64,000 bases of DNA from Escherichia coli (GCF_030384885.1 NZ_CP128613.1); one strand, 5' to 3'. Numbered from the stretch's first letter, positions 36,159-39,801 are shown. Notes: a model not told the origin generated them from the sequence alone. A program made the numbers and translations.

Positions 36159-36197
36159 TGCTAACGTCAGATTGTTGACAAAGTGCGCGTCGTTCAT

Positions 36198-36296
36198 GCC
36201 GGATGCGGCGTGAACGCCTTATCCGGCCTACAAAAATCTTGCCAATTCAATATATTGCAGGATAGTGTAGGCCTGATAAGCGTAGCGCATCAGGCA
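36198..36296. repeat. REP/BIME element: two inverted REP units in fepA–entD intergenic region
   Basis: gccggatgcggcgtgaacgccttatccggcctac and inverted gtaggcctgataagcgtagcgcatcaggc match canonical E. coli REP sequences. Confidence 0.8.
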
Positions 36297-36323: not shown

Positions 36324-36953
36324 ATGGTCGATATGAAAACTACGCATACCTCCCTCCCCTTTGCCGGACATACGCTGCATTTTGTTGAGTTCGATCCAGC
36401 AAGTTTTCACGAACAGGATTTACTCTGGCTGCCGCACTACGCTCAACTGCAACACACTGGACAGAAACGCAAAACAGAGCATTTAGCCGGACGGATCGCT
36501 GCTGTTTATGCCTTGCGGGAATGTGGCCTTAAATGTGTGCCCGCAATCGGCGATCTACGCCAACCTATGTGGCCTGCGGGGGTATTTGGCAGTATCAGCC
36601 ACTGCGGGACTACGGCATTGGCAGTGGTATCCCGTCAACCCATTGGCATTGATATCGAAGAGATTTTCTCTGTACAAACCGCAAGAGAATTGACAGACAA
36701 CATTATTACACCAGCAGAACACGAGCGACTCGCAGAATGCGGTTTAACCTTTTCTCTGGCGCTGACACTGGCATTTTCCGCCAAAGAGAGCGCATTTAAG
36801 GCAAGCAAGATACAGGCCGCTCAAGGTTTTCTGGATTATCAGATAATTAGCTGGAATAAACAGCAGATCATCATTCGACTAGAGGATGAGCAGTTTGCTG
36901 TGCACTGGCAGATAAAAGAAAAAATAGTCATAACGCTGTGCCAACACGATTAA
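36324..36953 (+). CDS. entD: 4'-phosphopantetheinyl transferase (enterobactin synthetase component D)
   Basis: ORF recognised as EntD; start placed at MVDMKTTHTSLPFAG; the upstream part of the 256-aa ORF covers the REP element; start uncertain by a few codons. Confidence 0.82.
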   Translation: MVDMKTTHTSLPFAGHTLHFVEFDPASFHEQDLLWLPHYAQLQHTGQKRKTEHLAGRIAAVYALRECGLKCVPAIGDLRQPMWPAGVFGSISHCGTTALAVVSRQPIGIDIEEIFSVQTARELTDNIITPAEHERLAECGLTFSLALTLAFSAKESAFKASKIQAAQGFLDYQIISWNKQQIIIRLEDEQFAVHWQIKEKIVITLCQHD

Positions 36954-37074
36954 TTGACAACATCTGGTACGATTCGCCCGCAGCCATCACTGACCACGGG
37001 CGAAAGTGTAAAGCAGGTGCCTTACCATCCTGACCTGACAACCGGATATGCGGGGATTACTCCCCGCACAACGG

Positions 37075-37227
37075 CTACTTCTTCGGTTCGTAAGCGAGAA
37101 CAGCCCTGAACTCAATATTACGTTCCTTTACGGTGAACTCACACAGCGAGTCGCCGACCAGAAGCGTAAATCCCAGCACTGTCAAACACAGCACTATGAC
37201 CGCCACAAGGGCATATTTCGTCAGCAT
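37075..37227 (-). CDS. Hok-family membrane toxin (copy 1)
   Basis: 50-aa [50 protein letters not shown]; ATG verified at 37225-37227 (cat on plus strand). Confidence 0.78.
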
Positions 37228-37576
37228 GTTTATATTGCCTCCATGCGAAGAAGGGACTACCATCCAAATTGTCTGGTTTGGAGTGGCGGCCCCAGGGTTG
37301 ATAGAAATATCTCCTGGGGCTTCATCTTTCCAGACCTCAGAGTTAACCTGAAACCGGAAAGCTTCAGGCACCCGCCGTTATCTTACCCTTCCTTAGCAAA
37401 ATGGCTGTTTATTTATACAGTAAATCCTGTTCCGGACTTTTCATTAGTATTATCGCCCATGCCAGTTAAACGAAATCGCCCGCAGCCATTGCTGACCGCG
37501 GGCGAAAATGTAAAGCAGGTGCCTTACCATCCTGACCTGACAACCGGATATGCGGGGATTACTCCCCGCACAACGG

Positions 37577-37729
37577 CTACTTCTTCGGTTCGTAAGCGAG
37601 AACAGCCCTGAACTCAATATTACGTTCCTTTACGGTGAACTCACACAGCGAGTCGCCGACCAGAAGCGTAAATCCCAGCACTGTCAAACACAGCACTATG
37701 ACCGCCACAAGGGCATATTTCGTCAGCAT
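37577..37729 (-). CDS. Hok-family membrane toxin (copy 2)
   Basis: identical 50-aa Hok sequence, one repeat period downstream of copy 1. Confidence 0.78.
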
Positions 37730-37874
37730 GTTTATATTGCCTCCATGCGAAGAAGGGACTACCATCCGAGTTGTTGAGGTTCGGAGTGGCAGCCCCAGGG
37801 TTGATAGAAATATCTCCTGGGGCTTCATCTTTCCAGACCTCAGAGTAAACCTGAAACCGGAAAGCTTCAGGCAC
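37641..37874 (-). CDS. mok-like overlapping reading frame (copy 2)
   Basis: 77-codon ORF overlapping the hok start in a different frame, as for mok in hok/sok loci. Confidence 0.45.
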
Positions 37875-38079
37875 CCGCCGTTATCTTACCCTTCCTTAGC
37901 AAAATAGCTGTTTATTTATACAGTAAATCCTGTTTCGGACTTCTGTTGGCAAAACTGATCATTGCCCTTAAAACGACATCGCCCGCAGCCATCACTGACC
38001 GCGGGCGAAAGTGTAAAGCAGATGCCTTACCATCCTGACCTGACAACCGGATATGCGGGGATTGCTCCCCGCACAACGG

Positions 38080-38232
38080 CTACTTCTTCGGTTCGTAAGC
38101 GAGAACAGCCTTAAACTCAATATTACGTTCCTTCACCGTAAACTCACACAGCGAGTCTCCGACCAGAAGCGTAAATCCCAGCACCGTCAAACACAGCACT
38201 ATGACTGCCACAAGGGCATATTTCGTCAGCAT
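38080..38232 (-). CDS. hokE: Hok-family membrane toxin (copy 3, ybdK-proximal)
   Basis: 50-aa Hok with ...[14 protein letters not shown]; occupies the hokE position next to ybdK. Confidence 0.82.
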
Positions 38233-38377
38233 GTTTATATTGCCTCCATGCGAAGAAGGGACTACCATCCAAATTGTTCGGGTTTGGAGTGGCAGCCCCA
38301 GGGTTGATAGAAATATCTCCTGGGGCTTCATCTTTCCAGTCCTCAGAGTAAACCTGAAACCGGAAAGCTTCAGGCAC
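38144..38377 (-). CDS. mok-like overlapping reading frame (copy 3)
   Basis: 77-codon ORF overlapping the hok start, paralogous to copy 2. Confidence 0.45.
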
Positions 38378-38673
38378 CCGCCGTTATCTTACCCTTCCTT
38401 AGCAAAATGGCTGTTTATTTATACAGTTGGTCTTATTTCGGACTTCTCACTACGCATTAGATCAACCGAAACTAAGCCAGTTTTTCCTTCGCCCCTCAAT
38501 CGTCAAAATTCTCCGCCGCCAGCCAGCTCTGCCATAACTTGGCACATTGCAAAAGTAGCCAAACTTCTTCAGTCACAATCAGTTCACCATCTCCAAAAAA
38601 AGAAATATTCCAGAACTTCCGCATCTCCCCCGGCCGCTCCCACTTCTATACTGAAATGAAAACGCCAACATAA

Positions 38674-39801
<1,128 letters not shown>

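Follow-up and report, generated by a model that had tools for sequence, protein, structure and literature searches.

Between entD (plus strand, ending at 36953) and ybdK (plus strand, starting at 38683), the stretch of Escherichia coli DNA analysed here (64,000 nucleotides in its whole length, hereafter the window) carries a row of small toxin genes where K-12 has one hokE, and the question is what such a row represents: a set of working toxin-antitoxin modules, a series of relics, the recent or artefactual multiplication of a single unit, or the outcome of repeated capture. An earlier note on this DNA described three tandem, diverged Hok-encoding units on the minus strand, a description that the repeats, the open reading frames and the Rfam matches all bear out. 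The chromosome of E. coli 2013C-4282 (NZ_CP027579.1) matches the window at 100% identity and already carries the PGAP/RefSeq names entD, three times hokE, and ybdK; the array thus lies at the hokE locus between these two flanking genes.

The hokE array runs on the minus strand over 36974-38428 as three head-to-tail units with a period of 502/503 bp. A repeat search of the window recovered two three-copy families of direct repeats, at 36958-38262 and 37272-38452, with start-to-start distances of 502/503; Tandem Repeats Finder reported no array, because the period of 503 exceeds the longest period it allows, 500. Unit 1, proximal to entD and of leader type gamma, has a predicted hok mRNA of 400 nt (36974-37373, minus strand), whose 5′ end was set at position 1 of the Rfam model RF01794 and whose 3′ end was set at the hairpin 36974-37003. 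Unit 2, in the middle and of leader type beta, and unit 3, proximal to ybdK and of the K-12-like leader type alpha, each have a predicted hok mRNA of 401 nt (37476-37876 and 37979-38379, respectively, both on the minus strand), delimited by Rfam match, fold and hairpin. Each unit thus ends in a terminal hairpin, as had been claimed (36974-37003, 37476-37505 and 37979-38008 in units 1, 2 and 3, minus strand). Those of units 2 and 3 are terminator-like with a T run; that of unit 1 has no T run, which we count against the explanation favoured below.

The cores of the units, 450 nt counted from the LexA box through the terminal hairpin, are 95.3-97.1% identical, and the transcribed parts show 12-19 differences per ~400 positions. 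Identity between the 53-nt spacers is only 58-68%, where shuffled sequence gives 49 ± 3.7%. Units 3 and 2 are joined by spacer J-a (37926-37978, minus strand), a common type that 724 of 5,426 genomes contain, and units 2 and 1 by spacer J-b (37423-37475, minus strand), a rare type present in 9 of the 5,426; the identity of J-b to J-a, 68.5%, is higher than in every shuffle. The units had been described as nearly identical except at their promoter-distal ends. The divergence is real, but it is not promoter-distal: the diverged ~35-53 nt are the inter-unit spacer, which lies between the terminator hairpin of the preceding unit and the LexA box of the next, directly upstream of the promoter. Nor does the array reach 38481, as had been supposed; the repeated DNA stops near 38452.

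Each unit encodes a 50-aa Hok protein on the minus strand, at 37075-37227 in unit 1, 37577-37729 in unit 2 and 38080-38232 in unit 3, all three being open reading frames that PGAP calls hokE. The Hok ORF matches Pfam PF01848 (HOK_GEF) with E = 3.9e-8 over residues 5-46 and hence belongs to the small Hok/Gef toxins. Units 1 and 2 have the same coding sequence, in nucleotides as well as in protein, with R41 (WP_000956467.1 for unit 1). In unit 3 (WP_000956465.1), seven changes from this sequence are synonymous and one, K41 for R41, is not; this confirms the single K/R difference noticed earlier in the third copy and places it at residue 41. Comparing unit 3 with the other two gives a dS of 0.21 and a dN of 0.009, hence a dN/dS of ~0.04, and stop codons are absent from all 24 hokE units examined. 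On these figures, the Hok coding sequences are evidently under strong purifying selection.

The leaders of the three mRNAs give full-length matches to RF01794, scoring 86.8, 83.6 and 81.8 bits in units 3, 2 and 1, with a gathering score of 59 and E values of about 1e-17 to 1e-18; although this model bears the name "sok", it describes the hok mRNA leader, on the hok strand. All three units thus have the structured hok leader. In the minimum free energy (MFE) structure of each ~400-nt mRNA, nt 1-8 (GGGUGCCU) are paired with nt 352-360 (AGGCACCU; AGGCAUCU in unit 3), the partner in unit 1 being nt 352-359. Placed on the window (minus strand), the fbi-like element AGGCACCT of unit 1 at 37015-37022 pairs with the tac-like 5′ end GGGTGCCT at 37366-37373, the corresponding predicted pair of unit 2 is 37517-37524 with 37869-37876, and the fbi-like element AGGCATCT of unit 3 at 38020-38027 pairs with 38372-38379, where the fold-back is retained with one G-U pair. 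In unit 2 it appears in both the MFE and the centroid structure, with z = -7.2 against shuffles. The fold-back helix is also kept in the RNAalifold consensus of 20 distinct hokE mRNAs from 13 strains, in which the Sok-target hairpin shows one compensatory pair (A-U to G-C), and its partners covary between families, being GGCGCUU/AAGCGCC in an R1-like hok/sok locus (L015) and GGGUGCCU/AGGCACCU in hokE. In silico, a tac/fbi-type 5′-3′ fold-back is therefore predicted in all three mRNAs. Further along the 3′ UTR lies a hairpin, GCGGGGAGTAATCCCCGC (37050-37067, 37552-37569 and 38055-38072 in units 1, 2 and 3, minus strand), which is the exact IS421/IS186 site of K-12 and other strains; the site is unoccupied in all three window units.

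On the opposite, plus strand each unit carries a Sok-like gene, at 37235-37331, 37737-37834 and 38240-38337 in units 1, 2 and 3. The gene of unit 1 has a promoter-like TTGCCT-17-TACCAT at 37235-37263 and a predicted RNA of ~62 nt at 37270-37331; the promoter-like elements of units 2 and 3 are at 37737-37765 and 38240-38268, and their predicted RNAs at 37772-37834 and 38275-38337. With start points inferred from sequence, the predicted Sok RNAs are 62-63 nt long and end in a terminator hairpin, GCCCCAGG...CCTGGGGC, followed by a U-rich tail. The promoter-like hexamers and the terminator hairpin are the same in all three window units, and the hexamers, the hairpin with its tail and the hok Shine-Dalgarno sequence (SD) are invariant across 20 distinct units. 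These promoters were placed by positional homology with the R1-like locus L015 (TTGCGC-17-TATCCT), not by consensus strength; a sigma-70 consensus scan gave no promoter of 9/12 or better, with the Sok promoter at 8/12, and this too counts against the favoured explanation. Each Sok RNA is perfectly matched to its own mRNA, and the three differ only in their 5′ tails. Complementary to the tail is the Sok-target hairpin of the mRNA (minus strand; 37259-37287, 37761-37790 and 38264-38293 in units 1, 2 and 3), the sole segment that tells the alpha, beta and gamma types apart. The predicted fold-back and the Sok promoter-like elements, which the earlier note had allowed might be missing, are thus present in all three units, as is the terminator layout of Sok.

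A pattern search with the LexA 18-mer TACTGTATAAATAAACAG gave three matches with 0-1 mismatch, where 0 were expected. These LexA boxes, all on the minus strand, are TACTGTATAAATAAACAGCC at 37403-37422 in unit 1, TACTGTATAAATAAACAGCT at 37906-37925 in unit 2 and AACTGTATAAATAAACAGCC at 38409-38428 in unit 3, and they occupy -49 to -30 relative to the predicted hok mRNA starts. The hok promoters themselves have a -10-like TAAGAT (37380-37385, 37883-37888 and 38386-38391) and no recognisable -35, again a point against the favoured explanation. As judged by these matches, each hok promoter has the LexA box typical of the SOS regulon. hokE is listed among the SOS-induced toxin genes having a Lex box (PMC2826370), and ciprofloxacin induces hokE in EHEC (PMC11125564).

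The overlapping mok-like frame claimed for each unit is correct only in part. In every unit, the frame in the register of R1 mok runs through the hok start without a stop, but an R1-type mok start, with its SD (GAGG) and AUG, was searched for in the hokE leader and not found, which we likewise count against the favoured explanation. In that register, units 1 and 3 have a UUG as their sole start, and unit 2 has lost it. An alternative leader AUG lies within the motif GGAAAGATGAAGCC (37323-37325, 37826-37828 and 38329-38331 in units 1, 2 and 3, minus strand); it shares the hok frame in units 2 and 3, whereas a frameshift separates it from hok in unit 1.

The sequence elements, their predicted folds, the family to which the units belong, the signs of purifying selection and the distribution among genomes are what we observed. 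They are best explained, with a probability of roughly 85%, if the region is the chromosomal hokE locus in its fullest form, made of three intact hok/Sok modules, each most likely working by itself, that are old paralogs from an ancient duplication. By homology with R1 hok/sok and K-12 hokE, each unit would have its own transcripts, processing, RNase III decay, toxicity and SOS induction. In each of them, a weak promoter overlapped by the LexA box would give a hok mRNA of ~400 nt, whose extreme 5′ end GGGUGCCU would pair ~350 nt downstream (AGGCAC/UCU) and shut the mRNA, so that it would be neither translated nor bound by Sok. Gradual trimming from the 3′ end would then open it. The ~62-nt antisense Sok, transcribed from a promoter inside the hok leader, would pair with that leader and lead to decay, and the 50-aa Hok membrane toxin would be made only upon exhaustion of Sok or a surge of hok transcription, for example during SOS. 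The mechanism of R1 hok/sok is summarised in PMC9841398, and what we propose for each unit is the same with LexA control added. As to its history, an ancient tandem duplication would have founded the array, with later gene conversion, and with unequal crossing-over adding and removing units. Chromosomal hok loci reportedly show no post-segregational killing and have been proposed to be inactive (bioRxiv 10.1101/2025.08.07.668861), and we count this against our explanation.

That statement leads to the strongest rival, namely that the units are evolutionary relics, structurally intact and functionally silent, kept because they are hard to delete or neutral. The missing R1-type mok start and the weak promoter matches would fit such silence, as would a copy number that varies freely from 1 to 3 between strains and the frequent disruption of units by IS421. 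Against it stand the dN/dS of ~0.04 over a dS of 0.21, with 0 stop codons in 24 units, and the preservation of the RNA elements: in 20 units and in other Escherichia species, fold-back, Sok promoter, Sok terminator, hok SD and LexA box either do not vary or vary with compensation. Purifying selection on the protein and retention of these elements would together argue that the units are not mere relics. The SOS induction of hokE in EHEC (PMC11125564) and the appearance of over-expressed HokE among the toxic controls listed in a preprint (bioRxiv 10.1101/2025.08.07.668861) also speak against silence, and we regard this rival as unlikely.

How ordinary three copies are can be read from other genomes. 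Of 5,426 complete E. coli genomes, 5,407 contain matches to a 300-nt core query; these amount to 8,360 places, 8,351 of them chromosomal, and the median genome has two. Two places were found in 30 of the 60 records of a systematic sample and one in 28, and 17 of the 40 records of a second sample have two annotated hokE genes. About half of E. coli thus has two tandem units and ~46% has one, like K-12. Three tandem units occur in 2013C-4282, EC42405, MFDS1022581, MFDS1019527, R32_14_1F and 2020CK-00188, and a seventh three-unit version, IS-riddled and partly inverted, in 2017-02-2CC, which makes at least 7 of 5,426 genomes (~0.13%). MS 145-7, which showed three places, was considered as a further three-copy strain and rejected, as it has two units plus an IS150 and no third tandem copy. 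The three-unit arrays of the R32 type have a junction pair other than that of the window; therefore, three-unit arrays have either several origins or arose by unequal crossing-over between two-unit alleles. Three copies are a rare allele of a usually duplicated locus, real but ordinary. The earlier note was hence right that K-12 has one hokE, but its comparison with K-12 makes the array look more unusual than it is, as the E. coli median is two. The K-12 copy is cut by IS421/IS186. Since two copies are commonest, the lone IS-disrupted copy of K-12 is a poor reference.

These genomes also bear on the second rival, a recent local amplification that boosts toxin dosage, or an assembly artefact that inflates one unit. 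The regular head-to-tail copies with their period of 502/503, and the identical coding sequences of units 1 and 2, are what it would predict. Yet 12-19 of ~400 transcribed positions vary between the units, their spacers look unrelated, the leader type of each unit is present in other species, and arrays that repeat a single type are very rare. As each of the two junctions is unique sequence, an assembly could not mix up the units, and the suspicion of a single-unit artefact was checked against three other independent assemblies, EC42405, MFDS1022581 and MFDS1019527, which show the same three-unit array with J-a and J-b at 98% identity. We consider both forms of this rival very improbable.

The age of the array is seen best in its leaders. 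Three leader types can be told apart: alpha (CCAAACCCGAACAATTTGG), in window unit 3 and in K-12; beta (CCGAACCTCAACAACTCGG), in window unit 2; and gamma (CCAAA-CCAGACAATTTGG), in window unit 1. The type-specific 38-39-mers of the three were found in 2224 genomes (2234 places), 1246 genomes (1253 places) and 1120 genomes (1122 places), that is, about once per genome; therefore, arrays nearly always mix types. The types also occur elsewhere in Escherichia: E. albertii has a single beta unit, whose beta segment is identical to that of E. coli, E. whittamii has a gamma and an alpha unit, and two further Escherichia species carry them as well. Taken with the dS of 0.21 and the mixed-type arrays, their presence across species upholds the earlier view that this is no trivial recent duplication. 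An ancestral alpha-beta-gamma array reduced by deletions was considered as well, and fails for the gamma-beta order of O157:H7 and the gamma-alpha order of E. whittamii. Fixed differences between types are confined to alignment columns 96-110 of about 400; outside these columns, all common polymorphisms are common to several types, and several arrays combine identical coding sequences with unlike leader types. Such shared polymorphisms and identical coding sequences behind unlike leaders point to gene conversion between hokE units.

The earlier note's suggestion of repeated capture, here in the form of independent captures of mobile hok/sok cassettes at a single hot spot, is the least probable of all and can practically be dismissed: hok/sok is common on plasmids (at least 5,000 plasmid records match R1 Hok) and IS elements are drawn to the hokE locus, but the units belong to a single hokE family with at least 95% identity and a shared orientation and phase, their spacers are homologous to one another, 8,351 of 8,360 places are chromosomal, E. 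albertii and E. whittamii have units at this very core-genome site, and neither an integrase nor repeat scars were found around the units. Taken together, the results exclude recent amplification, assembly artefact and repeated capture.

A further idea concerns the specificity of the antitoxins, and we hold it only tentatively, as rather unlikely: the ancient, cross-Escherichia array of up to three modules may be one in which selection keeps the Sok tails and their target segments distinct, especially beta from alpha and gamma, while gene conversion evens out the rest, so that partly orthogonal antitoxins, and not one common pool, would gate the three SOS-inducible toxins. The units differ most densely within 17 nt, those of the Sok 5′ tail and its target; within arrays, binomial P values range from 1e-3 to 4e-6 when beta is compared with alpha or gamma, this 17-nt segment having been chosen post hoc. 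In some arrays identical coding sequences stand beside unlike recognition segments, and the rarity of homotypic arrays, the identity of the beta segment in E. albertii and E. coli and the confinement of fixed type differences to columns 96-110 can be read in the same direction. On the other side, only the beta tail is strongly unlike the other two, alpha and gamma differing at 2-3 positions, and predicted non-cognate duplexes are still very stable: non-cognate tails carry a predicted penalty of 8-18 kcal/mol and leave extensive pairing. Ancestry by itself could account for the mixed-type arrays, and ancestry together with a tolerant loop could equally well account for the clustered differences. 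Discrimination between paralogous antitoxins was reportedly described for the Sib RNAs by Han and co-workers in 2010; we know of no such discrimination test for hokE units.

Compared with known systems, the array is of a known kind, already annotated as three hokE genes, and tandem hok islets are already published. Its closest relative is K-12 hokE/sokE, at the same site between entD and ybdK and of the same family, with the alpha leader as in unit 3; LexA box, Hok ORF, fold-back and Sok layout match those of the window units. K-12-type records are 94-95% identical to the window units, and their Hok proteins are 1-2 residues apart: residue 8 is V in the window proteins and A in K-12, and R41 is a further difference in units 1 and 2. 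In K-12, however, there is one unit, whose 3′-UTR hairpin is split by IS421/IS186 with removal of the fbi element and the terminator, whereas the window has three uninterrupted units. Intact, IS-free strains with all three types, such as 2013C-4282, offer a natural system for tests of activity, SOS-inducibility and insulation, and measurements of SOS-linked persistence could be influenced by the number of hokE units and their leader types, which vary between lineages.

R1 hok/mok/sok (parB) and its IncF relatives share with the units the Hok/Gef toxin, the Rfam leader and the tac/fbi-type fold-back, as well as a -10 followed after 6 nt by a G-rich mRNA start. The putative Sok promoter, which overlaps the region of the hok SD, and the predicted terminator hairpin of Sok are also placed as in R1. 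Unlike R1, which has a mok SD (GAGG) and AUG without counterpart in hokE, hokE is chromosomal, LexA-regulated and tandemly arrayed. LexA control of a toxin gene whose translation is gated by a constitutive antisense or small RNA is also the design of tisB/istR-1 and symE/symR; these belong to other toxin families, have other RNA architectures and are single-copy. Local duplication has produced islets of 2-6 Hok homologs spaced by less than 2 kb, to which about 10% of Hok genes belong (bioRxiv 10.1101/2025.08.07.668861), and the three genes here, 502/503 bp apart, with proteins differing by at most one residue and with homologous spacers, form such an islet. Other tandem type I loci are ldr/rdl, ibs/sib and zor/orz. 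Type I loci are often tandemly duplicated and evolutionarily stable (PMC2887945), and the hokE array of the window matches that description exactly.

The 3'-UTR hairpin GCGGGGAG(T/C)AATCCCCGC, which occurs once per hokE unit on the minus strand (37050-37067, 37552-37569 and 38055-38072), is in every hokE unit a precise hot spot for insertion of IS421/IS186 (window and comparison loci L010, L013 and L014). The position of the element, directly after GGGGAGYAATCCC, is identical in K-12 J53, in E200086 and in each of the three units of 2017-02-2CC, and among these strains the IS is found either way round. Insertion deprives the unit of both its terminator and the fbi element, the 3' partner of the mRNA 5' end in the closing fold-back. 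In the window, none of the three sites is occupied. The array of 2017-02-2CC (NZ_AP027764.1 3515000-3521000) is the product of IS-mediated rearrangement: a gamma, a beta and an alpha-variant unit are each followed by IS421, and one of the units lies inverted with an IS copy on either side.

A leader AUG that may stand in for mok, preceded by GGAAAG, lies on the minus strand at 37323-37325, 37826-37828 and 38329-38331. In units 2 and 3 it shares the frame of hok and opens an 83-aa ORF; unit 1 carries a 1-nt deletion that puts the AUG out of the hok frame, and its reading frame ends at a UAG about 35 nt upstream of the hok AUG. The three-unit array of EC42405 matches that of the window except in its entD-proximal unit 1 (L002:475-867), which may be defective because a deletion has removed 7 nt (mRNA nt 19-25) from its first leader hairpin; unit 1 of the window is full-length. 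In some units of two-unit arrays from other strains (comparison loci L007, L006 and L008), Hok itself carries substitutions in or near its transmembrane helix that might weaken the toxin, namely L18P in the ybdK-proximal unit of O157:H7, L13Q in 24A16CRGN010 and G25R in VCSW7. None of the three is present in the Hok of any window unit.

Opposite the hok leaders, RefSeq places two plus-strand pseudogenes (37196-37469 and 38201-38460; "hypothetical protein, frameshifted"). These appear to be artefacts that the annotation drew from long antisense ORFs, not genes. Between unit 3 and ybdK lies a 42-aa minus-strand ORF (38496-38624), to which the annotation of some strains gives the name hypothetical protein (L003, WP_001225242.1; L008, WP_001225246.1). 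Rfam gives short matches in the fepA–entD interval (36187-36274): ES036 scores 44.4 bits, which exceeds its gathering score, and naRNA4 falls below threshold. They look like a REP/BIME-type repeat and have no connection to the hokE array.

Finally, A-to-I editing of hokE mRNA by TadA has been described in a preprint as recoding position 46 to Cys (bioRxiv 10.1101/2025.08.07.668861). The GCTTACGAACC context around the Tyr46 codon (minus strand, 37085-37095, 37587-37597 and 38090-38100) is invariant in all units, and each of the three window copies retains the editing site.
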